DNA of 64,000 bases, taken from the NCBI GenBank assembly GCA_046541415.1, contig JBKHDI010000001.1, positions 32,657-96,656 on the forward strand, read 5' to 3'. The notes under the pieces were generated by a model. It was given only the letters and a program-made list of their open reading frames with translations, had not been told where the DNA came from and searched no databases. Positions 14,355-64,000 of this stretch are shown here, piece by piece. This stretch comes from Phycisphaerae bacterium (GTDB lineage Bacteria; Planctomycetota; Phycisphaerae; SM23-33). Numbering within the stretch: the stretch's first letter is position 1; each line of letters starts with the position of its first letter. A program made the position numbers and the translations under genes.

Positions 14355-14405
14355 CGTTTTATCTCCAGGCAATCAGAAGAACAACATGAAGGCGCCGGCC
14401 CGTCG

Positions 14406-17393: not shown

Positions 17394-17413
17394 TCATTCC
17401 AGCCGATCCGAAC

Positions 17414-18100: not shown

Positions 18101-18131
18101 GACGGCTATCAGCAGATCAAAAACGCCGGAA

Positions 18132-18166
18132 AAGCGCTTCTAAGCGGGCTCCGCAGCCCGTATAAT
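18132..18166 (+). promoter_or_regulatory. putative sigma70-type promoter for fba (perfect -10 TATAAT at 18161-18166, weak -35 TTCTAA, 17-nt spacer)
   Basis: Read directly. ~65 nt upstream of fba ATG. Confidence 0.3.
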
Positions 18167-18232
18167 CCCAAGCCCTGACGATTTCCCACCTTCTCAGGTG
18201 TACGCGTAAACCCCAAGAAAAGAGAGACAAAC

Positions 18233-19255: not shown

Positions 19256-19280
19256 GCCTCGACCGACAAGAAGCAATCCA

Positions 19281-19319
19281 GCGCAGAGAATCTTCAGATT
19301 CTCTGCGCTTTTCTTTTTG
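19281..19319 (+). terminator. rho-independent terminator (perfect 12-bp stem GCGCAGAGAATC/GATTCTCTGCGC, loop TTCA, TTTTCTTTTTG)
   Basis: Read directly downstream of fba stop. Confidence 0.8.
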
Positions 19320-19517
19320 CGCCGGATACAGGCTATATCAACGGATGTCCAATTGAATTGTCCCCCGCCGGACCGGAAGTGACGTTGCAGCCTCTGCAAA
19401 GGCCGGCGTTGAGGAAATTCTGCGTTTGTCAAGTCCTGCCAAACCAGTACAGTATTGTCAGGCCCTGCGGGCCGAGGAACGAGACACACAATGGCAGCCC
19501 GACTGCCGGGAGAAATC

Positions 19518-20543: not shown

Positions 20544-20634
20544 TTTCCTCGCAGACCGCGGCTGCTGGTTCCGAACTGTTCCATGTCGGCCTGCAGAGTT
20601 CCGCGCCAACCCCGGACCGTCTGAGAGTAGTCGG

Positions 20635-29926: not shown

Positions 29927-30970
29927 TCAGCCTAGCCCATGCTTGCAGGATGGTTCCGGTCCCAGGTAATTGCCCGTCGCTGCGTAAGCGCGGGCCCGAC
30001 AACCACCGCAAATGCCCTTGTAGCTGCATCGGCCGCAGGCGCCCTGGAGCTTGTCGTAATCCCGAAGGTCGGCCAGGACGGCGCTGTCACGCCAGATGTC
30101 GGCCAGGGGCGTCTGCGTCACGTCGCCGCATTCAACGGGCAGGTAGCCGCAGGGGAACACCTGCCCGACATGGGAGACGAAAACTACCGAGACCCCGCCC
30201 AGGCACCCTCTTGAATGGCCCGTATCCAGGCCCCGCTGGGCGGCGATGCGGTAGTAGTGGGGGGCGCAGGTCGCCTTGATCTCCATCGACCTGCTCTGCT
30301 GGCGATCGACGATCCAGTTCAGCACGGCCTCGTAGCGATCGGGCGGCAGCTGGTGACTCGGGCCGATCTGCACGCCGCAGCCGACCGGGACCAGCAGGAA
30401 CAGGTGCAGCGCCTCGGCCCCGATTTGTCCGGCCAGGGCGTAGATCTCGTCGAGTTGCTGATCATTATGGGCGGCGATGGTGGCGTTGACCTGCAGGGGC
30501 ACGGCCGCAGCTCGCAGGTGCGCCGCACCGGCCATGGCTTGCGCAAAGGCGCCGTCCACACCGCGGAAAGCATCGTGCGCAGCGGCGTCGGCCCCGTCGA
30601 AGCTGATCGAGACGCGACGGAAGCCCGCATTCCGGATCTGTTCGGCGATCCTCGCATCGACCAGCGTGCCATTGGTCGCCAGGGCGGTCGGCAGCGACAG
30701 CGATCGGGCGTAATCGGCCAGTTCCTGCCAGTCGTTCCGCATCAGCGGCTCGCCGCCGGAGAAGACGATGATCGGCATGCCCAGGGTGGCGGCCGAGTCG
30801 AGCACCGACTTGACCTGCGCCGTTGTCAATTCGTCCGGCTGGGCTTGGCCAGGATCCAGCCGCCTGCAATGCACGCAGGCCAGATTGCACCGCGCCGTGG
30901 ACTCCCAGAACAGCAGACGCAGGGGCCTGGGCCCGTCAGTCTGGCCGATATGGCGCGAGGGGGGCGTCAC
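29927..30970 (-). CDS. radical SAM/SPASM protein, NirJ/AhbC/AhbD family (putative alternative heme biosynthesis enzyme)
   Basis: N-terminal LRLLFWESTARCNLACVHC motif characteristic of NirJ-type enzymes. C-terminal Cys-rich SPASM region (CGRCSYKGICGGCRARAYA). GTG start overlapping upstream stop (GTGA). Confidence 0.6.
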   Translation of the reverse strand: MTPPSRHIGQTDGPRPLRLLFWESTARCNLACVHCRRLDPGQAQPDELTTAQVKSVLDSAATLGMPIIVFSGGEPLMRNDWQELADYARSLSLPTALATNGTLVDARIAEQIRNAGFRRVSISFDGADAAAHDAFRGVDGAFAQAMAGAAHLRAAAVPLQVNATIAAHNDQQLDEIYALAGQIGAEALHLFLLVPVGCGVQIGPSHQLPPDRYEAVLNWIVDRQQSRSMEIKATCAPHYYRIAAQRGLDTGHSRGCLGGVSVVFVSHVGQVFPCGYLPVECGDVTQTPLADIWRDSAVLADLRDYDKLQGACGRCSYKGICGGCRARAYAATGNYLGPEPSCKHGLG

Positions 30971-32160
30971 AGTGGCAGGTCTCCCTCGATTTCCGCATCG
31001 GTCAGATAGCAGGCAGGGTCATCTCCCCACAGGTTGCCCGTTGCCGCCTCGGCCCGGGCCCGCAGATTGCCATTGCACATCGGCAGAAAGCGGCAGTCCA
31101 GGCAGCGACATTCCAGGTGTTTGTGTCGGTCGCGCAGCTTTGCCAGCAGCTCGTTGTCCGGGTCTGTCCAGATCTCGCTGAAGGGACGATGCAGCACGTT
31201 GCCCAGCACCTTGTTGCGCCAGAACTGGTCGGGGTGCACGTTGCCGTTCCAGCTGACACAGCCGATGCCGACGCCCGTCGAGTTCCCGCCGTTCATTTGC
31301 AGCAGTTGCAGCGCATTGGCGGCCCGGGCCGGGTCTTCCTCCAGCAGACGCAGGTACAGGTAGGGCCCGTCGGCGTGGTTGTCGACGGTAAGCACCTCGA
31401 CCTGCCTGCGATCGCGGTGCAGCCGGACTGTCCGGTCGATGATCCGGTCGATCGCCTCGCGGGTCTGGGCTGCGTCGAGTGAGTCGGTGCGGATCTGGTC
31501 GCCGCGGCCGGTGTAGGCCAGATGGTAGAAGCAGATCCGCGGGATGTTCTTCTCTTCCAGCAGGTCGAACATGCCGTCTATGTCTTCCACGTTACGGCGG
31601 TTCAGCGTCAGACGCAGGCCGACCTTTACCCCGGCGGATTGACAGTTGTCTATGCCTTCCATCGCCCGATCGAACGCGCCGGCAACGCCCCGGAACTCGT
31701 CGTTGACCTCCCGCAGTCCGTCCAGGCTGATGCCCACGTAACTCAGGCCCGCTCGGGCGAAGGCGTCGGCCTTGACGGGCGTAATCAGCGTGCCATTGGT
31801 CGAAACCACCGCCCGCATGCCGGCCTGGCGGGCATGGCCGATCATCTCCAGCAGGTCCGGACGCATGAGCGGCTCTCCACCGGAGATCAGCAGTACGGGA
31901 CAGCCGAAGCAGGCCAGGTCGTCGATCATAGCCCGGGCCTGCTCGCCAGTCAGTTCATCCGGGGCCGGGTCGCAATTGCTGGCTGAGTAACAATGCGCGC
32001 AGCGTAGATTGCACGCCTTGGTGGAGTTCCAGACCACCACGGGCCTCTTGTCGGCCGAGAACTGCAGCAAATGGCTGGGCAGTTTCCCGCTGTCCCTGCC
32101 GTACCGCAACGGGTCTGATGCCTCGACAGTGCGACAGTAAAGTTTGGAGATTCCGATCAT
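30967..32160 (-). CDS. radical SAM/SPASM protein, NirJ/AhbC/AhbD family (second paralog)
   Basis: MIGISKLYCRTVEASDPLRYGRD leader then RPVVVWNSTKACNLRCAHCYSAS motif. C-terminal SPASM cysteines (CRCLDCRFLPMCNGNLRARA). Start at first ATG (32160), no clear SD. Confidence 0.6.
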   Translation of the reverse strand: MIGISKLYCRTVEASDPLRYGRDSGKLPSHLLQFSADKRPVVVWNSTKACNLRCAHCYSASNCDPAPDELTGEQARAMIDDLACFGCPVLLISGGEPLMRPDLLEMIGHARQAGMRAVVSTNGTLITPVKADAFARAGLSYVGISLDGLREVNDEFRGVAGAFDRAMEGIDNCQSAGVKVGLRLTLNRRNVEDIDGMFDLLEEKNIPRICFYHLAYTGRGDQIRTDSLDAAQTREAIDRIIDRTVRLHRDRRQVEVLTVDNHADGPYLYLRLLEEDPARAANALQLLQMNGGNSTGVGIGCVSWNGNVHPDQFWRNKVLGNVLHRPFSEIWTDPDNELLAKLRDRHKHLECRCLDCRFLPMCNGNLRARAEAATGNLWGDDPACYLTDAEIEGDLPL

Positions 32161-32263
32161 GGCAGGTCCGGCTGGGGGGGTGTTACGTCTATACGGCGGG
32201 GTGCATTCTAGCAGAACCCCGAGTCCTGCCCCAACGCCTGTCTTGCAATTCCGGCCGTCCTGC

Positions 32264-33370
32264 TCAGTTGCCGAACTGGAAGGCCTCGTCCAGCAGCTTA
32301 AAGCCCAGTTGGGTCTGGGTGACCACGAGCCTGCCGTTGACGATCTTGACCGACCCCTTGCCCAGGGGATACCACATGTCATCGCCGATGGCGTTCTTGA
32401 TTATCGCGATGATGCTGTCGCGGTTGCGCGTCTTGAGCCGTTCGAGCTCATCCAGCCCGCCGCGGTCGTCATCATCGTCGTCGTCATCGTCGTCATCGTC
32501 ATCGTCGAAATCGAAGCCGTCATCGTCGTCATCATCGTCGTCGTTGTTCGGCAGGGCCGGCAGGGGGTCCGGGCCCTTGAAGTTGCGGATGGGCATCAGC
32601 GCGTGCTTGATGTCGTAGATGCGGGTCTGGGTTTTCTGGTTCAGGGCCTGCCCGGTGGCGATGGTGACAACGCCGCCGTCGACGACCCAGTAGACGCTGG
32701 AGAACGTGTCGCGGTTGGCGTTGAGCTGGGCCATGACCACGTCGAGCACCCGGGCGGCGGATACGTTGTTGAGCTTCAGCTGGATGGGTGTGTCCGGGCT
32801 GATGCCCTCCAGTTCCAGCGAGGCCCAGTTGACGTGGAAGTTCTGCTCTGTTGTTGTCCGCATGAACTGGACCACGTCGCGCAGGGCGATGTTGTCGAAG
32901 TCATACTGGACCTGGCTGCGCCGGGCCGGCTGTTTGCCCCTGGCGGCCTCGACGGCAGTGCCAACGGCGGGAAGGGTGCGCACGCGGCGATCGCGCCCGG
33001 CCTGGGATCGAAGCAGGAGGTACCGCTGCTGGCTGGTTACCAGGATCTTGCCGTCGTGGACCAGCCATGTCAGGGGCTTTCCCTGCGGGGAGACGCGCAC
33101 CAGCAGCGTATCCAGCAGGGCTGCGGGTTTGACCTCGCGCCGGGCTATGCGGACAGGGGTATCCAGCGACACGCCATAGCTCTCCAGCGTGCGGGCGTCG
33201 ATGTGGACCTTCATGTCGACCTTGCTGCCGACCCACGCCAGGGCCTGGCCCAGCGTGGCCGGGATGCCCGCGGTGGAGACCGGCTGCTTCATCGGATCGG
33301 CCTTCTCGGCCGCCGCCGGGGCGAGCGAGAGGAGTGTCAGCAAGGCTGCGATCGAGAGTTGCTGTTTCAT
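32264..33370 (-). CDS. secreted protein with two STN/secretin-N-like repeat domains and a 26-residue poly-aspartate tract
   Basis: Signal peptide MKQQLSIAALLTLLSLAPAAA. Two similar ~80-aa units (HIDARTLESYGVSLDTPVRIARREVKPAALLDTL / YDFDNIALRDVVQFMRTTTEQNFHVNWASLELEG). DDDDDDDDGFDFDDDDDDDDDDDDDD tract. GGGAGA RBS. Confidence 0.55.
   Translation of the reverse strand: MKQQLSIAALLTLLSLAPAAAEKADPMKQPVSTAGIPATLGQALAWVGSKVDMKVHIDARTLESYGVSLDTPVRIARREVKPAALLDTLLVRVSPQGKPLTWLVHDGKILVTSQQRYLLLRSQAGRDRRVRTLPAVGTAVEAARGKQPARRSQVQYDFDNIALRDVVQFMRTTTEQNFHVNWASLELEGISPDTPIQLKLNNVSAARVLDVVMAQLNANRDTFSSVYWVVDGGVVTIATGQALNQKTQTRIYDIKHALMPIRNFKGPDPLPALPNNDDDDDDDDGFDFDDDDDDDDDDDDDDRGGLDELERLKTRNRDSIIAIIKNAIGDDMWYPLGKGSVKIVNGRLVVTQTQLGFKLLDEAFQFGN
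32465..32542. repeat. in-frame (GTC/ATC)n trinucleotide simple-sequence repeat encoding poly-Asp
   Basis: 26 near-consecutive GTC/ATC codons on plus strand (GAC/GAT on coding strand), interrupted only by GAA-ATC-GAA-GCC. Confidence 0.85.
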
Positions 33371-33513: not shown

Positions 33514-34386
33514 TTAGTACATGCTTCGCAGATAACCCCGTGCGGTGGCAAACCAGCCCGTGCCCCAATGTCGCAGGCCGTGCAGCAGCAGCGAGGCTAG
33601 ACCAACCGCAGTCAGATCGGCGGCGTTGGCCTCGATAAAGCTGATCACGCTGGACGGGTGATTGCGCACGTGGAGCAGCTCGCAGTGTTCCATGTTGTCA
33701 TCGGCCTTGCGGGCGCCTTCACGCAGTTCGGCCACGCCGGCATCGACGCAGACGTCGAAGATCATCTCCGGCTGGACGATGTGCTTGTCGCGAACCAGGC
33801 CCAGGCAGATCATCTCGGTAATCTTCTCGCCGGGCATGGCGCACTCTTCCAGCAGTTCCTCGGCCATGGTCCGGAAGGGGCAGGGCAGTTGGTCAGGCTC
33901 CTCGGGAGGCTGGACGACGCCCCCGATCGGGTGGATCCGTCCGGCGTGGTAGTACACGTGCTCGCTGCGCCGCCCGAGCAGCAGGAAGCCGTCGTTGGTC
34001 TGCAGGGCCGCCGAGACGCCCAGGGCGTCGCCGAGGATGTCCGGGCCATACTCGTACCGCAGATGGGCGTGTGTCAGGTTGGTGCCCAGGAACGTCTTGA
34101 AGTCGATCGGGCCCAGATCTAGCGTCAGGTCGTCGCCGGTGGTCGAGCAGTCTTCCAATCGACACAGTTGGCCGTTGAACAGGCGACGGTCGGTCCCCTG
34201 GGCCTTTTCCATCTGCTCGGCCCAGGTCTTGTCGATCAACTCCGTCACAGCCTCGCTGACCGGACGGCTGAGAGTCGACCACTTGACCCGGACGCGCTCG
34301 GGGGGGTACTTCCCGACCATGTCCAGGAAGAAACGCCCGCAGTCGCGGACGCCTCCGTTGGTTTTGTGCACTTCGTATGCCTGCAA
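33514..34386 (-). CDS. hypothetical protein (290 aa; degenerate NUDIX-like box GGVVQPPEE..RTMAEELLEE)
   Basis: Coherent ORF between hemB and secreted protein. TTG start with GAGG RBS. Fold assignment tentative. Confidence 0.4.
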   Translation of the reverse strand: MQAYEVHKTNGGVRDCGRFFLDMVGKYPPERVRVKWSTLSRPVSEAVTELIDKTWAEQMEKAQGTDRRLFNGQLCRLEDCSTTGDDLTLDLGPIDFKTFLGTNLTHAHLRYEYGPDILGDALGVSAALQTNDGFLLLGRRSEHVYYHAGRIHPIGGVVQPPEEPDQLPCPFRTMAEELLEECAMPGEKITEMICLGLVRDKHIVQPEMIFDVCVDAGVAELREGARKADDNMEHCELLHVRNHPSSVISFIEANAADLTAVGLASLLLHGLRHWGTGWFATARGYLRSMY

Positions 34387-40231: not shown

Positions 40232-40347
40232 CGTCGCTGAATCCTGTTTCTGGCGGATGGTGAATGTCCGTCGTTCGTTTTGGTAAAGAGCCACGTATTA
40301 TGTCACAAGCCCACGTCAAGTCAACGAGGAATTTGTGCAATTTTCCC

Positions 40348-40365
40348 CCGCCCGGGCCCGGGCGG
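40348..40365. repeat. perfect 18-bp palindrome CCGCCCGGGCCCGGGCGG in rplM / lipoprotein divergent intergenic region
   Basis: Read directly. Flanked by further CCCGGG-containing inverted repeats (ACCCGGGT at ~40432). Confidence 0.45.
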
Positions 40366-40587
40366 ACAGAAATCGGCCAAATTTTCCAGGCCCGATCCCC
40401 GGAATCCGACCTGTATGCGTAGAAAGTGGCGACCCGGGTCCGGGAGGATCCCCCCCCGGGAGCAACCGGGCCGGAGAAGGGCGATTTCTTTCTGAGCAAA
40501 CACTTTACGTCCCGTCGCCCAGGCGTCTATCATGCGGACGAATCGACGCCTTTTCTCCAGGTCCGGAGGATGGAGATGACAGATCCT

Positions 40588-41550
40588 ATGAAAACGGGTG
40601 TATTGGTGCTGGTTTCGGTAGTCCTGCTCTTGGCGAGCGGCTGTGGAGACAGGACGCAGACGATGCGGTTCTCCTACCACAGACCCGCCCTGGTGACGCT
40701 GCCGGACGGGGTCGAGACGATGCTCATCGCACCGCTGGCCGCATCGGATGCCCAGGACAAGCCCTGGACAAACCGCGCCGCCGATACGATCAGCAACGTC
40801 CTGGCCGATTCCAGCCTGGCCAGGCAGGGTCTGGACATCCGTCTGGCCGAGCCGGGCCAAGTCGTCGAATCGGCTGGCCCAGCGGCCGAACTGGCCCGAC
40901 AGACCGGGGCAGAGTCCTGCCTGTTCGGGAGCATCGATACCTCCCATTCGCAACGAAAGGTGGTCGATCCCTACATCGATCCGCAGACCGGGCAGGTCAG
41001 CCGTCGGGATATCTGGGCAATGTCGGCCAAAGTGACAATGCAACTGCGGCTGATCCATGCAGCGGATTCGGCCACCATCACCGCAGTCGAAATCACCCGC
41101 ACCTTCGACTCGCAGGACCCCAAAGACAGCTCGCTGGTCGCCAGGGTAACCGACAGTCTGCGGGCTACCGACGAAGCACCTTCGGCTGAGCCCGTTCTGG
41201 CCGACCTGATCGAGCAGTGCGCCCGGGCCTTTGTCGCCCGGATCAGCCCGTCGCGGGTGACCGTCGAGGCCGACCTGCTGGACGGGCTGCCCGAGGCCCT
41301 GGTCGCCACGGCCAACCAGATGGCAGTTCGGAAAGACTATCAGACCGCCGCGGACCTGTATATGCAAGCCATGGACGAGGCCGGGGACCAGGCAGGCGTA
41401 ATGTACAATCTGGGCCTGGTTTACGAAGCGATGGGGCGGCTGAACGAGGCCGCCGCCATGTACGGATCGGCCAGCATGGCCTCGGCCAGACCGATTTTCA
41501 GCGAGGCGCTGCAACGAGTGGAGCGGGCGCCTCTGATAGATGGCAGCTAA
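40588..41550 (+). CDS. lipoprotein (lipobox LLASGC) with C-terminal TPR-like helical repeats
   Basis: Signal MKTGVLVLVSVVLLLASGC. C-terminal TPR-like (YQTAADLYMQAMDEAGD..GVMYNLGLVYEAMGRLNEAAAMY). Track ORF from 40426 is a 5' over-extension. Confidence 0.6.
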   Translation: MKTGVLVLVSVVLLLASGCGDRTQTMRFSYHRPALVTLPDGVETMLIAPLAASDAQDKPWTNRAADTISNVLADSSLARQGLDIRLAEPGQVVESAGPAAELARQTGAESCLFGSIDTSHSQRKVVDPYIDPQTGQVSRRDIWAMSAKVTMQLRLIHAADSATITAVEITRTFDSQDPKDSSLVARVTDSLRATDEAPSAEPVLADLIEQCARAFVARISPSRVTVEADLLDGLPEALVATANQMAVRKDYQTAADLYMQAMDEAGDQAGVMYNLGLVYEAMGRLNEAAAMYGSASMASARPIFSEALQRVERAPLIDGS

Positions 41551-41629
41551 CCACCTGGGCCGATGAATGTCCTGTAGACCTGGATGGTCGACTGACCGGC
41601 CCTGTACGGTACCAATGGAGAGACAAACG

Positions 41630-42997
41630 ATGAAACGCACACTGACAGTACTGTTTATCCTGGCGATGTTCAGCCCGCTTATCGCCGGGGCCCAGAACGC
41701 CGATTCCCTGGCCCTGCAGAAACAGGCCCAGCGCAAGCTGCTGGCTTACCGTGCCGCCCGGGCCGACGCGATCCGCAAACTCGCCGAACGCATCAAGGGC
41801 CTGGAGTTGGCCTCCCAGACCACCGTCGAAGACTTCGTGACCACCAGCGACCGGATCGTATCCTCGTTGGATACGTTCCTCAACGGCATGAAGGAGATCG
41901 ACAAGGCCAAGCACTTCGACGACGGAACCTGCGAGGTGATCATGGAAGTCAAGGTCGCCGAGCTGATCGAAGAGCTCAAGACCTACCACAAAACCTACTA
42001 CAAGGGCGACAAGATCACCATCCGCCAGATCGAGGAACTCAACACCCGCGTGGATACCAAGGTCTTCCGCGAAGTCGGCCAGGGCGCAGCGCCCGAGGCG
42101 CTGGAATCTCCCGAACAGCTGCCCCTCCAGCCCGGCGGGCGGGTGAACCTGTCCAACCTGGACAAGTCCACCGTCGAATTCTGGATGAGTCACGTCACCG
42201 GCCGCGGGAGACTGATGGCTGAACGCGCAGCCCGCGTCGACGCGATGCGCCGCCTGGCTGAGCGGATCAAGGGCGTGCACATCACCGCCACGACCACCGT
42301 GCAGGACTTCGTGGCCGAGTCGGATGTAGTCAACCTCGACACCCGCGCCTTCATCCGCGGCGCCCGCGAGGTGGGCATCCGTTACTACGACGACGAACTG
42401 ATCGTTGAGGTCGAGATGACCATCAAGCTCCGCCAGCTGCTTGCCTCGGTCAAGAGTTGGTCGCAGATGCACTACAAGGGCGACAAATCCAACATCCGCC
42501 ACCTGGAAAACCGGATCCTGGAAGTCGAGGACAAGGAGATCACCGAGGTGGGCATGGGCACGCCGCCGGCCGATTACCTCAAGAAAGACAGCGTCACCGC
42601 GGCCGATCAGATGGTCATCGAAACCGCCCAGACCGCCCCGATGTGGGTCAACGAAGAGCTGACCGTCATCGGCCAGGCCGCCCTGGACCCCGAACGACCG
42701 GCCGCCCAGGCCAAGCTGATGGCCTTCCGGGCTGCCGAGCTCGACGGGCGACGCAAGCTGGCCGAGCGGATCAACGGCCTGCAGATCACCAGCCAGACCA
42801 CCGTGGAAGATTTTGTCGCCAAGAGCGACCAGATCCGTACCATGATGCATACTTTCCAGCAGGGCGTCGGCGTGGTCGAAGGCTCGCAGAAGGTCCTGGA
42901 CGACGGCACGGTGGAAGTGACCGTCGGCGTCGATCTGCGTCCGCTGTGGAACATGATCCTGCACTACCAGAAGCAGCTTAACATCAAGTTGCGCTAA
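41630..42997 (+). CDS. secreted protein composed of three tandem LPP20/FlgP-like repeat domains
   Basis: Signal peptide MKRTLTVLFILAMFSPLIAGAQ. Three ~125-aa repeats each with A..RA.AD..R.LAERI.G..I.S.TTV.DFV..SD.I...........DDG..EV...V consensus. GGAGAG RBS. Confidence 0.6.
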   Translation: MKRTLTVLFILAMFSPLIAGAQNADSLALQKQAQRKLLAYRAARADAIRKLAERIKGLELASQTTVEDFVTTSDRIVSSLDTFLNGMKEIDKAKHFDDGTCEVIMEVKVAELIEELKTYHKTYYKGDKITIRQIEELNTRVDTKVFREVGQGAAPEALESPEQLPLQPGGRVNLSNLDKSTVEFWMSHVTGRGRLMAERAARVDAMRRLAERIKGVHITATTTVQDFVAESDVVNLDTRAFIRGAREVGIRYYDDELIVEVEMTIKLRQLLASVKSWSQMHYKGDKSNIRHLENRILEVEDKEITEVGMGTPPADYLKKDSVTAADQMVIETAQTAPMWVNEELTVIGQAALDPERPAAQAKLMAFRAAELDGRRKLAERINGLQITSQTTVEDFVAKSDQIRTMMHTFQQGVGVVEGSQKVLDDGTVEVTVGVDLRPLWNMILHYQKQLNIKLR

Positions 42998-43025
42998 CCC
43001 GCGCGATTCATGAGAAAGGCGATCC

Positions 43026-44162
43026 ATGAGACGCTCCAGAACCTGTTTGTTGCTCCTGGCCTTCGGGATGATCGCGCTGAGTTTCTCAGCCCGGGCGGTG
43101 CGGGCCCAGGATGCAGGCCTCAAGACAGTCACCGTCAGCGGCTCGGGCATGGACCAGCAGGAAGCGATCCACGACGCCAAGCGTAAGGCAATCGAGGAAG
43201 CTGCCGGCACGTACATCTACTCCCAGTCGAAGACCGAGGACTTCGTGCTGGTCAAGGACACGGTCCTGGCCCGGTCGGCCGGGTTCGTCCAGAGCTTCGA
43301 GGTCCTCTCCTCTCAGACGAGCTTCGACGGGATCGTCACCATCCGGGCCAAGGCCGTTGTCAGCGTCCAGGGGATCAAGGATCTCTGGGGCACGGTGACG
43401 ATGCTGCTGAAAGACCGCGGACGGCCAAAGATCATGGTCTTCATCCAGGAACGCATCGCCGGGCAGGTCCAGCCGTCCTCGACAGTCCAGACCCGGATCG
43501 AGCAGCAACTGCTTAAAAGCGGTTTCCAACTGGTCGACCGCAACCAGATCAAGGCGATCGACGAGAAGGACCTGGCCGCGGCGATCAGTGAATCCGACCC
43601 GGCCAAGGCCCAGGCCATCGCCCAGCGGTTCGGGGCCCAGTTGTTCATCACCGGTCTTGCCAACGCCGCATCCGGTGGCGTGAAGAACCTCTACGGCACG
43701 GAGATGTACACCTACGAAGCCGAGGCCAACATCCGCTGCTACCGCAGCGATACGGGCCAGTTGCTCTCCAGCACTCCCGGCACGGCCACGCGGGGCGTGC
43801 AGCGCGTCTGGCGGTCGGCGGCCAAGCAGGCCTTGGACCTCCAGGCCCAGCAGATCACCCCGAAGGTCGTCGACGATATCCTGCGGTTCTGGCAGGATGC
43901 TTTGGAAGGCCGGGGCGAGGTGCAGTTGAAGATCTCCAGCATCGGCTTTAAGGAGTACCTCGACCTGAAGAAGGCCCTGAACACCCTCCGGGGCGTCAAG
44001 GACGTCCGCAACGCCAACTACAGCAACAAGATCGCTGAACTCTCCATCGAGACCGACCTGACGGCAGAGGCCCTGGCGGAAAAAATCGTCACCGAGATCG
44101 ACAGCAAGATCGAGATCGAGGGCCTGACCCAGAACGTCATCAAGGGCAAGTACGGCAGCTGA
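43026..44162 (+). CDS. secreted protein: N-terminal LPP20-like domain + TolB-N/LpoB/CsgG-like alpha/beta domain + C-terminal domain
   Basis: Signal peptide MRRSRTCLLLLAFGMIALSFSARAVRA. LPP20-like segment (QEAIHDAKRKAIEEAAGTYIYSQSKTEDFVLVKD..SFDGIVTIRAKAVV). Middle domain pattern KIMVFIQE...QLVDRNQIKAI...LFITGLANAA. Family assignment tentative. Confidence 0.5.
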   Translation: MRRSRTCLLLLAFGMIALSFSARAVRAQDAGLKTVTVSGSGMDQQEAIHDAKRKAIEEAAGTYIYSQSKTEDFVLVKDTVLARSAGFVQSFEVLSSQTSFDGIVTIRAKAVVSVQGIKDLWGTVTMLLKDRGRPKIMVFIQERIAGQVQPSSTVQTRIEQQLLKSGFQLVDRNQIKAIDEKDLAAAISESDPAKAQAIAQRFGAQLFITGLANAASGGVKNLYGTEMYTYEAEANIRCYRSDTGQLLSSTPGTATRGVQRVWRSAAKQALDLQAQQITPKVVDDILRFWQDALEGRGEVQLKISSIGFKEYLDLKKALNTLRGVKDVRNANYSNKIAELSIETDLTAEALAEKIVTEIDSKIEIEGLTQNVIKGKYGS

Positions 44163-44186
44163 CGCTGCAACAGAAGCCCTGAATGC

Positions 44187-44236
44187 GAAGACGCCCCCGC
44201 ATCGACACGTTCGTTGCGGGGGCGTCTTCTGCTTCA
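44187..44236. terminator. bidirectional terminator hairpin (perfect 15-bp stem GAAGACGCCCCCGCA/TGCGGGGGCGTCTTC, 13-nt loop) between convergent genes
   Basis: Read directly. T-tracts weak on both sides. Confidence 0.55.
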
Positions 44237-44249
44237 TCCGGCGGTGGGC

Positions 44250-50059: not shown

Positions 50060-50689
50060 ATGACGAAAGTACTGTTTATCCAGTCCTCGCCGCGGGGCCA
50101 GCGAAGCCGCTCGATTCAGGTGGCCAAGTCCTTTCTGGAAGGTCTGGCCGAAGCCAGAGGCCAACTGGAGACCGACACGCTGGACCTCTTTCAGGCCGAC
50201 TTGCCCCCATTTGACGGCGCGGCCCTGGAAGCCAAGTACGAGATCCTTTCCGGCTCTTCGCCCAGCGATGCGCATAGGCAGGCGTGGGCGAAGGTCGAGG
50301 CGGTGATCGACCGGTTCACCTCGGCCGACGTGGTCGTACTGGCCGTGCCGATGTGGAATTTCGGCATCCCGTACGTGCTGAAGCACTTCTTCGACGTGAT
50401 CGTCCAGCCGGGTTACACCTTCAGCTACGATCCGGAGAAGGGCTATTCCGGTCTTGTTACCGGCAAGACGGCCCTGGTCGCCTATGCCCGCGGCGGCGAT
50501 TACGACGCCGAGGCCCTCCAGGCCGTGGACCACCAGCAGCGGTACCTGGAGTTGATCCTCGGCTTTGTCGGATTCGGGGACGTCCGGTCCGTCACGGTCC
50601 AGCCGACGCTGATGGGCGATGAGGACAGCAAGTCCCGGAAGCTGGCCGGGGCCGTCGCAGAGGCCCGGAAAATCGGATCGCAGCTTTAA
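50060..50689 (+). CDS. azoR: FMN-dependent NADH-azoreductase
   Basis: MTKVLFIQSSPRG...LAVPMWNFGIPYVLKHFFD pattern of AzoR/ACP phosphodiesterase-like flavodoxin fold. 209 aa. Confidence 0.85.
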   Translation: MTKVLFIQSSPRGQRSRSIQVAKSFLEGLAEARGQLETDTLDLFQADLPPFDGAALEAKYEILSGSSPSDAHRQAWAKVEAVIDRFTSADVVVLAVPMWNFGIPYVLKHFFDVIVQPGYTFSYDPEKGYSGLVTGKTALVAYARGGDYDAEALQAVDHQQRYLELILGFVGFGDVRSVTVQPTLMGDEDSKSRKLAGAVAEARKIGSQL

Positions 50690-51741
50690 TTCCGGCCGCT
50701 TGCGGCGAGGTGGCGTTTGAGCTTCTCGGCCAGTTCGGCTGCGATTTTCGCCACGCCGGCATCCGGATCGTTCTGCGCGTTGACCAGGGCGGTGCGGATT
50801 TCGGCCAGGCGATACGATGCCACCGTCACGGCCATGGTGTCGTAGAGCATCTGGTCGTAGAGCGTTTTGCTGTTCCGCGCCAGCACGCGGGCCTGTGCCT
50901 GGATGCGCCCATAGTCGATCTGTCGGCCGTCGTCGAAGATCACGCGGGTGCAGGAGGGCAGCGAGGCCACCGTGTAGCCATCTTCCTGTCGAACCAGCAC
51001 GGGTCCGGCGAAACGCATGTTCTCTGGTCCGGGATTCTCGCGGACGGCCTGCAGATCGGCTTGGCAGTCTCTGCAGGGATCGGCTTGGGGACTGGGCTGA
51101 CTGGGCCGGTGGACGCGGAGAACCGCGTTGACCAGACAGTCGGGCTGTTTGCAATGGGCCCCGTCGGAGTGGGAGAGATTCTTGCTGAGCCCGAGGATGT
51201 GGGCAGCCTCGTGGCGGAGGGCGATCGGCAGGATGATTCGCGTCATCGGGGTGAAATAGGCCATGTCGACGAAGATCGCCGCAGGGTACTCCGTTCGTAC
51301 ATATGGCCTCTCTGCCCTTCGGTTCGCCTGGCGGGACGAATCGTAGAACAATACGTAGAGATAGGCTGTCCTGTTCCCGGCAGCCATCTCGGCGGGCATG
51401 TGCATGCGGCGCAGGGCGAGTTGGATCTCGTCGTTACCCGCGGCCATGTCTGCGGGAATGGGGCTGTCGCGGTGCACCACGATGCCGCGTGGTTTGTCAC
51501 AATGGGCCGAAAGGAAGTCCACCAGCGGCTGAACGAAATCTTCTTCGTTCAGGTAGATTCCCTCCAGGTGGTCGATCTGGACGTAGAGGCGGTCGCAGGT
51601 CCGGTCGGACAGGTAGAGCGCCTCGGGGCTCTGCCAGTCGGCCAGGCGGGCAGGACGCCCCGGCCCGGTGCAACCGACACAGACAGCCGCCCCCGCCAGC
51701 ATGGCGATCAGCAGCTGATAACGTCGTTGCACCGGGCCCAT
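50686..51741 (-). CDS. zinc-metalloprotease-like lipoprotein (HEAAH + downstream CX4C...CXXC; archaemetzincin/M54-like)
   Basis: Lipobox AVCVGC. HEAAHILGL...H..CKQPDC...CRDC arrangement reminiscent of peptidase M54 signature, with non-canonical spacing. Confidence 0.45.
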   Translation of the reverse strand: MGPVQRRYQLLIAMLAGAAVCVGCTGPGRPARLADWQSPEALYLSDRTCDRLYVQIDHLEGIYLNEEDFVQPLVDFLSAHCDKPRGIVVHRDSPIPADMAAGNDEIQLALRRMHMPAEMAAGNRTAYLYVLFYDSSRQANRRAERPYVRTEYPAAIFVDMAYFTPMTRIILPIALRHEAAHILGLSKNLSHSDGAHCKQPDCLVNAVLRVHRPSQPSPQADPCRDCQADLQAVRENPGPENMRFAGPVLVRQEDGYTVASLPSCTRVIFDDGRQIDYGRIQAQARVLARNSKTLYDQMLYDTMAVTVASYRLAEIRTALVNAQNDPDAGVAKIAAELAEKLKRHLAASGRN

Positions 51742-51760
51742 GGCTGTCCTCTGAGGTCTT

Positions 51761-52579
51761 TCAGACTCCGCTGTAGGCGTTGAACCCGCCGTCGACGGGA
51801 ACGACAACCCCGGTTACGAACTTGCCCGCGTCGCTCATCAGCCAGACCAGCGTGCCGACCAGTTCCTCGGCCTCGCCGAAGCGTCCAGCCGGGGTGTGCG
51901 AGACAATCTGCTGGCCGCGGGCGGTCAGGCTGCCGTCTTCGTTGGTCAGCAGGAAGCGGTTCTGCTCGGTCAGGAAGAAGCCCGGCGCAATCGCGTTAAC
52001 GCGGATCTCCGGGGAGTGGTTCTGGGCCATGTAGACCGCCAGCCACTGCGTGAAGTTGCTGATTGCCGCCTTGGCGCCGCTGTAGGCGGCGATGCGGGTC
52101 AGGGGGCGGAAGGCGTTCATCGAGGAGATATTGATGATCTGGCCTTTGCCGGCCGCGGCCATGCCGGCCCCGAAAATCTGCGAGGGCATCATCGTGCCCA
52201 GACAGTTCAGATCGAAGACCCAGCGGATCGCGTCGGCGTCCAGTTCGAAGAACGTGGTGGGGGGGACGCAGGTGGCTTCCTTTTTATTGCCCCCCGCCCC
52301 GTTGATCAGCACGTCGCAGCCGCCGAGGGTGTCCAGCGTCTTCTTCTGGGCGTCTTCGATCTCGCCCTTGTCCAGGACGTTGACCTTGACGGCCACGGCC
52401 TTGCCGCCGGCGTCGGTAATCTCCTTGGCCATCGCCTCGGCGCCTTCGAAGTTGAAGTCCAGCAGGGCGACGTGGGCGCCGCGGCAGGCCAGGGACTTGG
52501 CCATCTCTCCGCATAGCACGCCGGCGCCGCCGGTGATCGCTACGCGCTGGCCGCTGATATCAAACAAACTGTCGGTCAT
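51761..52579 (-). CDS. SDR family oxidoreductase (KduD/fructuronate-reductase-like)
   Basis: TGGAGVLG Rossmann motif, catalytic YSGAK, 272 aa. AAAGGAAAG RBS. Confidence 0.75.
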   Translation of the reverse strand: MTDSLFDISGQRVAITGGAGVLCGEMAKSLACRGAHVALLDFNFEGAEAMAKEITDAGGKAVAVKVNVLDKGEIEDAQKKTLDTLGGCDVLINGAGGNKKEATCVPPTTFFELDADAIRWVFDLNCLGTMMPSQIFGAGMAAAGKGQIINISSMNAFRPLTRIAAYSGAKAAISNFTQWLAVYMAQNHSPEIRVNAIAPGFFLTEQNRFLLTNEDGSLTARGQQIVSHTPAGRFGEAEELVGTLVWLMSDAGKFVTGVVVPVDGGFNAYSGV

Positions 52580-58523: not shown

Positions 58524-59195
58524 TCAGCGGCGTCTGCGGCGCAAGACCAGCAGGCCACCCAGGCCCAGCAGGGACATCGTGGCCGGTTCGGGCACGATTT
58601 CCAGCTTGATGTCACTGACCGTGCCGTAGATCCCGCCCTCGGCGCCGAGATAGGACGGATAGCCAACCGGGGCGACCTCGGAAGAACCTTCGAAGGTCGA
58701 GATCCCGTTGAGGTATCGCAACTGATAGCCCGCATGGTCGGTGAAATCACCGATCGCGGTGATCTGACCGGTTGCAGTCAGGACCTCGCCATCGACCATG
58801 AAGACCTCGGTCGTCTGGATGAAGGTCGTCAGGTCGACCGCGTAGTCGCCGTCACCGGCTTCGGTCCAGATGCCGCTCTTGAGCGACAGCGTCCCGCCGG
58901 TGTAGACGGTCTTGAAGACCTGCCGCATCGTACCGTCGCCCAAGTCGTCCATGTCGATGACCGAGTCGCTGTCAACGACCGCCCCTGAGAGGACCCACTG
59001 GGTCCCCAGGTCGGCCCCGTCGTAGCTCTGGGCATCCAGAAGGTCGCCCACGGGGTCGACAGTGGCGTCGTCGGAGGCCAAGGTCCACCGGCCGTCCAGT
59101 ACGTCTGGCGTTTCATAGGTTCCGACGATCGGAGCCGCCACAGATAGGGCGCAACTCGCTGCTAACACAAGAGATGCAATAAGTGCTTGTTTCAT
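58524..59195 (-). CDS. PEP-CTERM sorting-domain secreted protein
   Basis: N-terminal signal peptide. C-terminal VPEPATMSLLGLGGLLVLRRRRR (PEP motif + TM + Arg cluster). GGAGG RBS. Confidence 0.85.
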   Translation of the reverse strand: MKQALIASLVLAASCALSVAAPIVGTYETPDVLDGRWTLASDDATVDPVGDLLDAQSYDGADLGTQWVLSGAVVDSDSVIDMDDLGDGTMRQVFKTVYTGGTLSLKSGIWTEAGDGDYAVDLTTFIQTTEVFMVDGEVLTATGQITAIGDFTDHAGYQLRYLNGISTFEGSSEVAPVGYPSYLGAEGGIYGTVSDIKLEIVPEPATMSLLGLGGLLVLRRRRR

Positions 59196-61349: not shown

Positions 61350-64000
61350 ATGACCGACGAGATCATCTGCCGCAAGGGCCCCTACAGCCTCACCGCCGAC
61401 GGGGCCTTCATCATAGACGACTACCACCGGGCCAAGCCCTTCTCCAGCTTCCTGCCCGGTGTGGCGGGGCTCTGGGGCGTGCCGATGTGGCTGTACTTCG
61501 TCAACCGTGGCCAGGCCGTCGCCTGCTTCGGAACCGAAGACAAAGACCATGCCATCCTGCCGTTCGAGTCAGCGAATCTGCATCATCGACGCATTGCTGA
61601 CGAAGGCTTCCGGACGTTCATCCGCCTGGCCGACGGGCGATTCTACGAGCCATTCCGCTCCGTGCAGGACGACTACGACGTGACCAACCGCCTGGAGATC
61701 AGGCCCAACAGCCTGGGGCTGGTCGAGACCAACGCGACCCTGGGACTGGAGATCCGCGTCGAGATGGCCTGTGCGACCGGCGAGAGCTTCCCAGCCCTGG
61801 CCCGCCGCGTGACGATTCGGAACACCGGCGCCGAAGCGATGGATTGTGAACTGATCGACGGCCTCGGCCGCATCCTGCCGTACTACATCCCGGCTGAGCT
61901 GGAACATGTCATGCCCTTCATCTCCGAAGGGTACCTGCAGGTAGAGGGCCTGGAGCAGAACCTGCCGTTGCTGAAGAACAAGGCCCAGTCCTCGGATACC
62001 CCTGAGACCGAGTTCGTCCGGAAGTGTCACTTCTTCTTCGGCCTGGACGACACGGCCGGGGACGGCGAGCTCCTGCCGGCGATCGTCGACTTCCGCCGCG
62101 TCTTCGGCGACACGCTGGACTGGCACCGTCCTTACGCGTTCCTGCAGGCCCAGCCGTTCGACCCGTCGGTCCGTCAGGACCAGCACGCGATGACGCCATC
62201 GGCGATGGTCTACTGGCAGGGCAGCGTGAGGCCGGACGCCGATCAGTCCATCCGCCTGACGATCGGCCAGGCGCGCAACGCCGCCGAGGCTCGCGGTATC
62301 CCCACCGCGGTCTCCAACCGGGATTGGTTCGATGCCAACAACGCCGCTGCCGAACGGGAGATCTCCCGCATAGCCGACCACATGTTCCTGCATTCCTCTC
62401 GTCGCGTGCTGGACCTCTACGCCGGGCGAAGCTTCGTCGACAACACCCTTCGCGGCGGGCTGCCGCTGACCCTGGGCAGCGGAGCGGGCAAGAAGATCTT
62501 CCACGTCTTCTCGCGCCGTCACGGCGACCTGGAACGCGACTACAACAACTTCCAGCTCGATGCGACGTATCTTTCCCAGGGCAACGGGGCGTTCCGCGAC
62601 GTCAATCAAAACCGGCGATCCGATGTCTGGTTCAACCCGGACATCGAAGACCAGAACGTCCGGTTCTTCTTCAACCTCATTCAGCCCGACGGATTCAACC
62701 CGCTGCAGATCCAGGGAGCACGCTTTGCCATCTGCGATGAGAAGGCCCTGGGCCAAATGCTGGACCAGGCCTTCGCGCCCGAGCAGAAACAGACGGTCGC
62801 GAACCTGCTGGAAGGCGACTTCGCCCCGGGCGAACTGTTCGAAGGGCTCATCGAGGCCGGCATCGAGCCGAAAATGGACCGCCGGGAACTTCTCGACGCT
62901 CTGGTAAACTTGTCGGAGAAAATTGAGGCCGCCGAATTCGAGGCCGGCTACTGGGCAGACCACTGGTTCTACAACTTCGACCTGCTGGAAAGCTACCTGG
63001 CGATCTTCCCCGACCGCCTGCGCCCGCTGCTGGTCGACAACCGCGATTACACCTACTGGGACCCGGACGTGCAGGTCAAGCCGCGCCGCGAGAAGTACGT
63101 CATCTACCGGGAAGGGGAGTTGAAACACCTCGACTCGATCCGCCTGGATCCGGAGAAAGCTGCCCTGGTCGAGTCACGCAAAACTCTGCCGCGCCTGGTC
63201 CGCCTGGAAGACGGCCAGGGCCCGATCCACCGAACCAACCTGCTGGAGAAGCTGCTCTGTCTGCTGGCCAACAAGGCCGCCACGTTCAGCCCCTCGGGAC
63301 TTGGGATCGAAATGGACGGCGGCCGACCCGGCTGGAACGACTCGGTCAACGGCCTGCCCGGACTGTTCGGCGCCAGCGTCTCCGAAGTCATCCAGCTCAA
63401 GCGGGCGGTGGAAATGACACATCGCCTGGCCGAGAAGGCGGGGCTCGACGAGAGCTACAGCCAGCCAATCCCGGCGGAACTGGCCGGCCTGATCGGCCAG
63501 TTGCAGAAGATCCTCACATCCCGCATCGAAGCAGCCGACAGTCCCCAGGCCGAGTACGACTACTGGGACCGGGCCAACGACGCCAAAGAGGAGTACCGCC
63601 TGAAGGTGCACCTGGGCTTCTCCGGGAAGATGGCCGAGATCACCTGGGCGCGGATTTCGAAGTTTCTCCAGGCCGTCGCCCGGCGGACGCAGATCTCACT
63701 GGACAAGTCAGTCGACCCCGCTACGGGTCTGCTCTCGACCTACATCACCCACAAACCGGTCGAGTACGAACCGCTGTTCGACCCCGACGGCCAGCCGCTG
63801 ACCAGTGAGAGAGGGGCCCACCTGGCGCACGTCAGCGCCTTCCAACTGCACCGGTTCCCGGCCTTCCTGGAAGCGCCTCTGCACGCCCTGCGCATCGAGC
63901 AGGATCCGCACGAAGCCCGCAGGCTCGACCAGGCTGTCCGCAACAGCCCGCTGCGGGACGAGAAGCTTCAGATGTACATCGCCGGGGACAGCGTGGCCGA
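61350..64000 (+). CDS. large glycoside hydrolase/phosphorylase-like protein, 3'-truncated by window end (>883 aa)
   Basis: Continuous frame-0 ORF from ATG 61350 (GAAAGAG RBS) with no stop to window end. Not in the track because it lacks a stop. Protein-like composition. Family not assignable by eye. Confidence 0.55.
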   Translation, partial: MTDEIICRKGPYSLTADGAFIIDDYHRAKPFSSFLPGVAGLWGVPMWLYFVNRGQAVACFGTEDKDHAILPFESANLHHRRIADEGFRTFIRLADGRFYEPFRSVQDDYDVTNRLEIRPNSLGLVETNATLGLEIRVEMACATGESFPALARRVTIRNTGAEAMDCELIDGLGRILPYYIPAELEHVMPFISEGYLQVEGLEQNLPLLKNKAQSSDTPETEFVRKCHFFFGLDDTAGDGELLPAIVDFRRVFGDTLDWHRPYAFLQAQPFDPSVRQDQHAMTPSAMVYWQGSVRPDADQSIRLTIGQARNAAEARGIPTAVSNRDWFDANNAAAEREISRIADHMFLHSSRRVLDLYAGRSFVDNTLRGGLPLTLGSGAGKKIFHVFSRRHGDLERDYNNFQLDATYLSQGNGAFRDVNQNRRSDVWFNPDIEDQNVRFFFNLIQPDGFNPLQIQGARFAICDEKALGQMLDQAFAPEQKQTVANLLEGDFAPGELFEGLIEAGIEPKMDRRELLDALVNLSEKIEAAEFEAGYWADHWFYNFDLLESYLAIFPDRLRPLLVDNRDYTYWDPDVQVKPRREKYVIYREGELKHLDSIRLDPEKAALVESRKTLPRLVRLEDGQGPIHRTNLLEKLLCLLANKAATFSPSGLGIEMDGGRPGWNDSVNGLPGLFGASVSEVIQLKRAVEMTHRLAEKAGLDESYSQPIPAELAGLIGQLQKILTSRIEAADSPQAEYDYWDRANDAKEEYRLKVHLGFSGKMAEITWARISKFLQAVARRTQISLDKSVDPATGLLSTYITHKPVEYEPLFDPDGQPLTSERGAHLAHVSAFQLHRFPAFLEAPLHALRIEQDPHEARRLDQAVRNSPLRDEKLQMYIAGDSVA

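Follow-up and report, generated by a model that had tools for sequence, protein, structure and literature searches.

A conserved three-gene envelope cluster in Phycisphaerae with the domain make-up of flagellar outer-membrane ring proteins

The outer-membrane disks that surround some flagellar motors are a standard textbook example of how complexity is added. The Vibrio H-ring (PDB 9YDS, 9YEF, 8Z5N, 3W1E) is built of FlgO, FlgP and FlgT, a set of concentric rings fixed to the outer membrane, in which FlgT binds the LN loop of FlgH as well as FlgI and MotY. The basal disk of Campylobacter and Helicobacter (PDB 9HMF) comprises FlgP and FlgQ together with PflA and PflB, the latter two being long TPR arrays at the inner membrane. 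In FlgP, a stretch inserted after the SHS2 helix and before the second strand provides the beta-hairpin that builds the ring; within the family this insert correlates with ring formation, and FlgP itself is noted to belong to a broad family (PMC12222027). Other envelope proteins with related parts are the CsgG curli channel (PF03783; PDB 4UV3, 4UV2), the PelC ring of the PelBC exporter (PDB 5T0Z, 9H80) and LipL46 of Leptospira (NF033164), a non-flagellar envelope lipoprotein that is reported to be surface-exposed. Here, all three module types of the H-ring are found in one conserved operon of a distant phylum, amid housekeeping genes.

The A-B-C cluster and its conservation

The window analysed, i.e., the whole stretch of 64 kb, contains the following genes and candidate promoter.

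40504..40533, + strand: sigma-70-like promoter candidate upstream of A, TTTACG-18-TATCAT (consensus scan; weak, with 2 sites found and 0.8 expected by chance)
40576..41550, + strand: gene A, predicted outer-membrane lipoprotein in which an N-terminal CsgG-family domain is followed by a short TPR tail (ORF, RBS, orthologue HMM)
41630..42997, + strand: gene B, secreted periplasmic protein of 455 aa with three tandem FlgP-type LPP20 (SHS2) domains and no lipobox (Pfam LPP20)
43026..44162, + strand: gene C, secreted three-domain FlgT-like protein of 378 aa (AlphaFold2 model, Foldseek)

The original prediction, made from the DNA sequence, was of three consecutive genes on the forward strand, and all three are present in the ORF list. 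They are closely packed (intergenic gaps of 79 bp between A and B, and 28 bp between B and C), form an operon extending from 40576 or 40588 to 44162, and encode three exported proteins, currently annotated as hypothetical. GC3 values of 0.78–0.88 are usual for coding sequence of this genome. Gene A can be read from 40576 (324 aa) or from an alternative ATG at 40588 (320 aa); the former is a better fit to the GGAGG site, and is also the start of the public gene call (P0121, 324 aa). The cluster is flanked upstream by rplM-rpsI-argC and downstream by an aldo-keto reductase gene, in keeping with the neighbours that had been named for it.

Of 40 independent Phycisphaerae-type loci, 29 keep the order and strand of A-B-C; in most of the others, the contig breaks off within the cluster or genes are frameshifted. 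The same arrangement occurs in one far more distant lineage, where C scores just 184 bits. Gene order in relatives, on which the prediction had been open to challenge, is thus deeply conserved. Many relatives carry an extra small lipoprotein gene (D) and a second FlgT-like gene (C2), and across 41 loci the only recurrent neighbours are D, C2 and rplM/rpsI/argC/argJ. Distant homologues of C adjoin genes for tRNA synthetase, IF3, NusB and the like, and family members in Deltaproteobacteria and Sumerlaeota have unrelated, non-flagellar neighbours.

The absence of flanking flagellar genes had also been claimed, and no flagellar family was found in the scanned ORFs of the 64-kb window or in the gene table for 37.8–53.7 kb. 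More broadly, the window yielded no genes for flagella, curli or secretion, and none recur beside the cluster in the 41 related loci; csgA/B/E/F-like partner genes are absent from both.

Domains of the three proteins

Gene A had been described as a lipoprotein with a TPR tail. Both elements are present, and the description was incomplete in missing a CsgG-family domain between them.

40588..40644, + strand: lipoprotein signal peptide of A, lipobox LLASG-C19 (Cys codon 40642–40644)
40645..41283, + strand: predicted CsgG/TolB-N-like alpha/beta domain of A (orthologue alignment, Pfam CsgG on orthologues, hhalign)
41287..41526, + strand: TPR tail of A, residues 234–313, comprising about 2 to 2.5 repeats (Pfam TPR_19, TPR proteins in PDB)

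The lipobox is found in 28 of 30 orthologous ORFs, and its Cys is invariant across the 28 aligned A sequences. The N-terminal ~210 residues are assigned by sequence to the CsgG family, and the assignment is visible through the orthologues rather than by Pfam on the window copy. Among the aligned A sequences, 26 of 28 match Pfam CsgG at E ≤ 0.01, and two orthologues score 30.2 and 28.9 bits (cut-off 20.8). The window copy gives no match even at E < 1 because it is too diverged; the domain has diverged strongly, and an 8-residue deletion lies within the conserved motif YNRKYxRYQLVDRKRLKAILDERDLQ. It is nevertheless a clear orthologue, matching an HMM built from its 28–30 orthologues at E 1e-56. 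Since the most conserved motif of its family is lost, the window copy might work differently or poorly. Comparison of the A N-terminal domain with the middle domain of C by hhalign (87% probability, E 3.7e-6) indicates that the two are homologous, and A is accordingly placed, at the level of predicted domains, in the CsgG/FlgO superfamily. The tail is recognised by TPR_19 (25.7 bits, cut-off 25, residues 249–299) and by TPR proteins in PDB (E 1.5e-5). It is also the only part of the single-sequence model of A to exceed a pLDDT of 65, the model as a whole having a pLDDT of 44.

Gene B was predicted to be three LPP20-like domains, and this is borne out by Pfam LPP20 (PF02169), which scores 66.9 bits over three stretches (gathering cut-off 25.9) and 57.9 bits on an orthologue from another locus (L001). 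Recovery of LPP20 by HMM searches was the other point on which the prediction could have been challenged.

41708..42094, + strand: LPP20 repeat 1 of B, residues 27–155 (aligns to C. jejuni FlgP)
42188..42568, + strand: LPP20 repeat 2 of B, residues 187–313 (the part of B that matches V. alginolyticus FlgP best, chain 8z5n_2)
42686..42994, + strand: LPP20 repeat 3 of B, residues 353–455 (the part of B that matches V. cholerae FlgP best, chains 9yec_Fa and 9yds_Aa)

The repeats are 39–44% identical to each other, and B is 42–62% identical to its orthologues. Its N-terminus reads by eye as a Sec signal ending in AGA|QN, and there is no Cys around the cleavage site, either in B or in the orthologues, in contrast to Lpp20 and FlgP, whose lipid anchors hold them in the outer membrane. 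The only relatives of B in PDB are flagellar FlgP proteins, the best sequence match being C. jejuni FlgP (E 2.5e-7). Repeat 1 aligns to residues 85–160 of that protein with one 2-residue gap, located after the hairpin-insert region. Within the hairpin-insert region itself, both repeat 1 and the N domain of the C family align to C. jejuni FlgP without gaps, while the model of C is helical there.

Gene C begins with what reads by eye as a Sec signal, ending in VRA|QD. The AlphaFold2 model (pLDDT 87.3) has three domains, in agreement with the proposed LPP20-like domain, TolB-N/LpoB/CsgG-like domain and further C-terminal domain.

43119..43364, + strand: N domain of C, SHS2/LPP20/FlgT_N-like, residues 32–113 (model; family profiles)
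43428..43904, + strand: middle domain of C, TolB-N/PelC/LpoB/CsgG-like alpha/beta, residues 135–293 (AlphaFold2 model)
43917..44153, + strand: C-terminal domain of C, ferredoxin-like (beta-alpha-beta-beta-alpha-beta-beta), residues 298–376 (AlphaFold2 model)

The two best Foldseek matches of the model in PDB are both Vibrio FlgT (8z5n_0, E 1.7e-10; 3w1e, E 1.3e-9), over about 400 alignment columns. By profile, C and FlgT are matched only at E 0.13–0.41, and only in the signal-peptide region. Pfam FlgT_N (PF16548) matches 48 of 84 distant C-family members at E ≤ 0.01 (best 1.6e-10), while window C itself reaches 12 bits, under the cut-off of 28.8; FlgT_M and FlgT_C match none of 85 members. The C-family HMM also matches each of the three repeats of B, and a broad C-family profile matches C. 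jejuni FlgP at E 2.2e-10. In the AlphaFold2 monomer, residues 61–87 (pLDDT 78–83) are helical where FlgP has its beta-hairpin. LpoB models score below cut-off on C (18.6 bits against 22.3 for Pfam PF13036; 17.6 against 110.55 for TIGR02722), and C has no lipobox. The identity of C to more than 100 Phycisphaerae homologues is 51–80%. Its family is large (7301 clusters at 50% identity), and no characterised member of it was found.

A putative scaffold under the outer membrane

Our preferred reading, to which we give a probability of about 0.5, is that the A-B-C operon encodes a periplasmic scaffold, most likely ring- or arc-shaped, that is suspended from the inner leaflet of the outer membrane, shares its modules with flagellar disks and probably does not belong to the flagellum. 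A would be lipidated at Cys19 and anchor the assembly through its CsgG/FlgO-superfamily alpha/beta domain, with the short TPR tail as a protein-binding surface. B would be soluble in the periplasm and would polymerise side by side beneath the membrane, by way of three fused FlgP-type SHS2 domains that each carry the stretch corresponding to the inter-subunit beta-hairpin of FlgP. The FlgT-like C may attach to B by the FlgP-like N domain that it carries itself, placing the TolB-N-like middle domain as a second tier and directing the ferredoxin-like domain into the periplasm. We infer ring formation, the contacts among A, B and C, their location and the structure they support; candidate roles for such a scaffold are to space membrane and wall, to stabilise the outer membrane, or to serve as the collar of a different envelope machine. 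Several points run against the scaffold reading: B lacks the lipid anchor of FlgP, the modelled C monomer has helices at the site of the FlgP hairpin, C falls below the FlgT_N cut-off and matches neither FlgT_M nor FlgT_C, and the window copy of A has lost the most conserved motif of its family.

The modules are those of flagellar disks, and the trio could be a flagellar accessory that assembles around the LP-rings, the Phycisphaerae equivalent of a Vibrio H-ring or of the basal disk in Campylobacter, and is encoded apart from the other flagellar genes. It has the three module types of FlgO, FlgP and FlgT, with FlgP proteins as the sole solved relatives of B and FlgT as the best structural match of C. 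The missing flagellar neighbours are compatible with this, since Campylobacter flgP and flgQ also sit away from other flagellar genes. The three repeats of B fit a FlgP-like pattern because FlgQ of Campylobacter already resembles two FlgP repeats, a precedent for tandem FlgP domains (PMC12222027), and a flagellar apparatus occurs in at least one Phycisphaerae lineage (PMC6461901). We nonetheless regard a flagellar role as unlikely, given a window in which no flagellar gene was found among the scanned ORFs, 41 related loci in which none recurs, a C family in which FlgT_M and FlgT_C are undetectable, which is far broader than the Vibrio-type motor and which is partly similar to the LipL46 model, and the non-flagellar surroundings of its members in Deltaproteobacteria and Sumerlaeota. 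Because A-B-C is placed among housekeeping genes, it is most likely a scaffold not described before rather than a set of flagellar rings; that it is probably not flagellar is read from its gene neighbourhood.

We consider it improbable that A forms a genuine CsgG-type channel in the outer membrane, as a lipoprotein that oligomerises into a beta-barrel and has B and C as periplasmic adaptors or exported cargo in a curli-like system. The scores of A orthologues above the Pfam CsgG cut-off speak for a channel. When A was aligned by hhalign to E. coli CsgG, 167 columns were paired, with lipobox Cys on Cys, and the A orthologues have inserts of about 35 and 32 residues where CsgG has transmembrane hairpins of 30 and 32. 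However, the hhalign probability is just 17.7%, the A inserts contain 29–30% D/E/K/R compared with 17–22% in E. coli CsgG, and their alternating hydrophobic face is weaker (0.77 and 1.64, compared with 1.62 and 2.54 in CsgG). No counterparts of the curli genes csgA/B/E/F were found in the window or the related loci, and B and C are folded multi-domain proteins, unlike the unfolded amyloid-type substrates that CsgG exports. We give very little weight to other known kinds of helper in envelope maintenance or export, such as an LpoB-like activator of peptidoglycan synthase, or a PelC-like funnel leading polysaccharide to a porin. The LpoB match of C is below cut-off, C is not a lipoprotein, the relevant neighbour genes do not recur across loci, and the three FlgP-type domains of B would be left unexplained.

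If A-B-C is a non-flagellar scaffold, it is a concrete candidate for a pre-existing scaffold of the kind that motors co-opted, and a new core component of the poorly understood planctomycetal envelope. Tentatively, and at somewhat less than even odds, A-B-C may build a non-flagellar ring or lattice beneath the outer membrane that is a core structure of the Phycisphaerae envelope and a living example of the free-standing scaffolds that were later recruited as the H-ring or basal disk (FlgO/FlgP/FlgT); it could then be the collar of some other Planctomycetota envelope machine. If the cluster is flagellar, it would be, to our knowledge, the first H-ring-like disk outside Proteobacteria, with FlgP in a fused three-domain form.

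Comparison with described systems

According to database descriptions, the known ring formers among TolB-N-like lipoproteins include PelC, CsgG and FlgO, which fits a ring reading. An analogy with FlgP/FlgT/FlgO and with PflA/PflB had been drawn at the outset. Its first part turned out stronger than claimed, as FlgT is the best full-length PDB match of C and A falls in the CsgG/FlgO superfamily; its second part comes down to a generic TPR likeness between A and PflA/PflB.

In the basal disk of Campylobacter and Helicobacter, FlgP of C. jejuni is the best PDB match by sequence for both B and the broad C family, and a TPR protein occurs in each system. The long PflA and PflB arrays at the inner membrane differ from the TPR of A, which amounts to about two repeats and is joined to the domain of an outer-membrane lipoprotein, and nothing FlgT-like or CsgG-like occurs in the basal disk. 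A and CsgG are both lipoproteins, A orthologues align with CsgG in the core motifs and in two inserts of hairpin length, and the middle domain of C has CsgG as a structural neighbour; a TPR tail is lacking in CsgG, the A inserts are more polar than its membrane hairpins, and the cluster has no curli partners. Residues 43–330 of C, covering the N and middle domains, match positions 57–355 of the 413-position LipL46 model (46.2 bits, cut-off 400; E 2.6e-12), a partial homology only, and a distant C homologue (locus L048) also matches; LipL46 is a lipoprotein, whereas C is not. PelC differs in having no SHS2 domain, and the cluster has no PelB-like porin or pel genes.

The closest likeness is to the Vibrio H-ring. 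With a CsgG-family A, an LPP20 B and a C that matches FlgT, the trio matches FlgO, FlgP and FlgT in its domain make-up. FlgO resembles A as a TolB-N/CsgG-superfamily lipoprotein, FlgP resembles B in its LPP20/SHS2 domain, and FlgT shares with C an N/M/C three-domain architecture and its length (~377 aa and 378 aa). There are differences in each pair: A ends in a TPR tail, and its family is matched by Pfam CsgG and not by FlgO; B fuses three domains and lacks a lipid anchor; and C has no match to FlgT_M or FlgT_C at the sequence level. A-B-C belongs to a host of the Planctomycetota rather than the Gammaproteobacteria, and no flagellar genes were found near it.

Layout and conservation of the cluster

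Genes A, B and C lie head to tail on the forward strand, with gaps of 79 and 28 bp between the realistic genes and a purine-rich site upstream of each ATG. The flanking genes are those of the original prediction, with the rplM-rpsI side on one hand and an aldo-keto reductase gene on the other.

Features of the cluster and its flanks
Upstream flank, − strand: argJ, argC, rpsI, rplM
40426–41550 as listed (realistic start 40576 or 40588), + strand: gene A, ORF
41567–42997 as listed (realistic start 41630), + strand: gene B, ORF
43026–44162, + strand: gene C, ORF
Downstream flank: aldo-keto reductase (− strand), then OprB porin

The GC3 of A (0.78) is below that of B (0.86) and C (0.88), and all three values are normal for genes of this 63% G+C window. 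A defence or mobile-element origin of the cluster is at odds with this base composition and with the housekeeping context. Long antisense ORFs of 383–572 aa overlap A, B and C (41498–43216, 43086–44237 and 40321–41736, all − strand); they are not genes but the kind of artefact that high G+C content typically produces, and GC3 in the first of them is 0.64, compared with 0.86 in B.

After removal of duplicates, gene order was compared across 40 independent loci, made up of 39 in GTDB genomes and the related locus L002. The order A-B-C, whose retention in related genomes had been proposed as a check, is kept on the same strand in 29 of them, and in most of the loci lacking a full A-B-C set the contig stops within the cluster or carries frameshifted genes. 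Arrangements include A-B-D-C-C2 (11 loci), A-B-C (11 loci) and A-B-C-C2 (6 loci), the window carrying the minimal A-B-C form. In 14 of the related loci (e.g., L002:9460–9873) a further gene, D, separates B from C; its product is a conserved lipoprotein of 137 aa with the lipobox LAGGC, matched by neither Pfam nor NCBIfam. The window lacks D, and just 28 bp separate its B and C. In another locus, L048, unrelated mini-lipoproteins of 43 and 52 aa lie on either side of C in place of D. C2 is a full-length FlgT-like paralogue of C (~390 aa, 115–146 bits to C), positioned directly downstream of C at L002:11130–12299 and in about 22 other loci, which together make up over half of the related loci; the window has no C2, its C being followed by the aldo-keto reductase gene. 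Except for rplM, rpsI, argC and argJ (8–10 loci), no other recurrent families were found near the related loci. The A-B-C order is also present in a Guaymas Basin contig of 54% G+C, where C scores only 184 bits.

All of the cluster proteins are annotated as hypothetical, and none of A, B, C, C2 and D exceeded a cut-off in NCBIfam. Searches of the available literature found no paper that names both LPP20 and CsgG, and nothing relevant on CsgG-like TPR lipoproteins. The domains themselves are known; what is new is how they are combined and fused, and the phylum in which they occur.

Domain content of the three proteins

B carries a signal of the Sec type, its end read by eye as AGA|QN, and lacks a lipobox. 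It matches Pfam LPP20 in three stretches at 66.9 bits (cut-off 25.9), bearing out the claim of three tandem LPP20-like domains and the HMM recovery suggested as a check on it. The units (residues 27–155, 187–313 and 353–455) are 39–44% identical to one another, and units 1 and 2 bear a conserved YYKGDK...EVGxG extension. Searches of the PDB, with B alone or with a profile of 34 orthologues, gave no relatives other than FlgP proteins of the flagellum, from C. jejuni, V. cholerae and V. alginolyticus (E 2.5e-7 to 1.2e-4), and the best stretch fell in different repeats for different FlgP matches. Repeat 1 aligns with FlgP residues 85–160 with one 2-residue gap, after the hairpin-insert region, a span that takes in the insert from which FlgP rings build their inter-subunit beta-hairpin. 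Within the family this insert correlates with ring formation, and FlgQ resembles two FlgP repeats (PMC12222027).

C also carries a Sec-type signal (VRA|QD). An AlphaFold2 model built from 48 homologues (pLDDT 87.3, pTM 0.75) has three domains, of which the N domain (32–113) is SHS2-like and the C-terminal domain (298–376) ferredoxin-like. An HMM of C orthologues matches all three repeats of B. Against the PDB, a broad C-family profile reaches C. jejuni FlgP at 2.2e-10, the narrow profile gives only chance-level matches such as CD81, and neither reaches FlgT. Window C scores 12 bits on FlgT_N (cut-off 28.8); FlgT_N is matched by 48 of 84 distant relatives, and FlgT_M and FlgT_C by none of these. 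The link between C and FlgT is one of modelled structure and architecture only.

A protein identical to C is on record (P0001, from a Phycisphaerae metagenome-assembled genome, annotated as hypothetical), and identities of 51–80% to C were found for more than 100 proteins encoded in metagenome-assembled genomes of Phycisphaerae and Planctomycetota. A profile search of 1.84 billion representatives recovered 7301 clusters at E ≤ 1e-3, of which 334 reach E ≤ 1e-30. Distant members include proteins of Sumerlaeota and Deltaproteobacteria, the latter named 'FlgT N-terminal domain-containing protein' by NCBI. These distant relatives have no adjoining A or B; their neighbours encode tRNA synthetase, IF3, NusB and peptidases, and in some cases the gene after them encodes a TolB-N-like protein of 211 aa. 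Such ~211-aa partners occur in Deltaproteobacteria/Sumerlaeota contigs at L043:1919–2557 and L046:1272–1907; the match of the L046 protein to C is confined to the TolB-N-like middle domain (E 4e-19), and the L043 protein does not match the C HMM. Such a pairing differs from A-B-C and is simpler.

Gene A had been described as a TPR-tailed lipoprotein. Mature A begins at the lipobox cysteine Cys19 (LLASG-C) and its only Pfam match is TPR_19 (residues 249–299, 25.7 bits, cut-off 25), so that the description holds but is incomplete, since the orthologues add a CsgG-family domain. Word-index searches with full-length A and with its N domain alone recovered A itself only, because the window copy is too diverged, and orthologues were collected from the loci found through C. 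Window A is 22–28% identical to these (mean column identity of the alignment 47%, window copy included), and they are far more similar to one another than to it; it is nevertheless an orthologue of the set, matching an HMM built from them at E 1e-56. Pfam CsgG is matched at E ≤ 0.01 by 26 of the 28 aligned A sequences (best 7.5e-11), two orthologues scored singly give 30.2 and 28.9 bits (cut-off 20.8), and the lipobox cysteine is invariant. Window A has an 8-residue deletion in YNRKYxRYQLVDRKRLKAILDERDLQ, the motif that the family conserves best, and departs from the consensus there at most positions. Its N-terminal domain (40645–41283) is an outlier; its operon partners B and C are 42–80% identical to their own orthologues.

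A single-sequence structure model of A was unusable (pLDDT 44), and matches of the A profile in the PDB were dominated by TPR proteins. A profile comparison of the A family with E. coli CsgG, serving as a lead only, aligned 167 columns (E 1.4e-3, with a probability of only 17.7%), the lipobox cysteine pairing with a cysteine of CsgG. A second gene of the CsgG family, this one lacking a TPR tail, lies upstream of A and divergent from it at L002:5782–6750 (−), beside an ECF sigma/anti-sigma pair; it scores 40.8 bits on Pfam CsgG and, weakly, 18.8 bits on FlgO.

Gene content of the window

Pfam scans of 30 further ORFs and a precomputed table for 37.8–53.7 kb contain no flagellar, curli or secretion-system genes, in agreement with the earlier observation that flagellar genes do not flank the cluster. 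Among the genes that the window does carry are those for a sigma-70 factor, a sulfatase, GltX, ValS, LeuA, HemB and glycosidases.

Two other, very large envelope-type proteins are encoded on the − strand, one of 1034 aa (11268–14372) in which TPR repeats take up nearly the whole length and a YfiO/BamD-like stretch is present, and one of 1165 aa (6485–9982) with PD40 beta-propeller repeats and a squalene-hopene-cyclase-like C-terminal region. Two neighbouring radical-SAM genes (29927–32382, −), one with a SPASM domain, suggest a peptide-maturation or cofactor pathway. A 223-aa protein (58524–59195, −) ends in a PEP-CTERM sorting motif (24.3 bits, cut-off 20.7), which implies an exosortase system somewhere in the genome. 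Long ORFs at 17120–22146, 33514–34386, 50686–51807 and 61350–64000 (up to 883 aa) have coding-like GC3 and no Pfam match at E ≤ 1e-4 or 1e-5.

Possible roles and comparison with the Vibrio H-ring

The domain content and export signals of A, B and C, their operon structure and their synteny are direct observations. From these, we consider it about an even chance that the cluster encodes a periplasmic ring or scaffold that is tethered to the outer membrane and independent of the flagellum, and in which the three proteins would oligomerise and contact one another; this function, like the contacts, is proposed from the domains. A flagellar disk is a distinctly weaker candidate. It would account for FlgP being the sole PDB relative of B, and the gene content of the window argues against a flagellar operon without settling the question. 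Flagellar genes can be scattered, so the window is not decisive on a flagellar role. Nor is it so given that flagella exist in at least one Phycisphaerae lineage (PMC6461901).

A CsgG-type channel with adaptors is improbable. The CsgG-family domain of A would fit it, and the A orthologues have two inserts (~35 and ~32 residues) where CsgG has its two membrane hairpins; compared with those hairpins, however, the inserts are more charged and their hydrophobic face is weaker. Other envelope roles for these exported proteins are more doubtful still, and for LpoB-type and PelC-type roles there are no recurrent partner genes.

The proposed ring or scaffold can be compared with the Vibrio H-ring, which has the same parts list as the A-B-C trio. 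FlgO and A are both TolB-N/CsgG-superfamily lipoproteins, FlgP and B both SHS2/LPP20 proteins, and FlgT and C both proteins of N, M and C domains. Compared with the H-ring, the cluster has as its own features the triple FlgP fusion of B without a lipid anchor, the TPR tail on lipoprotein A, and the ferredoxin-like C domain of protein C.
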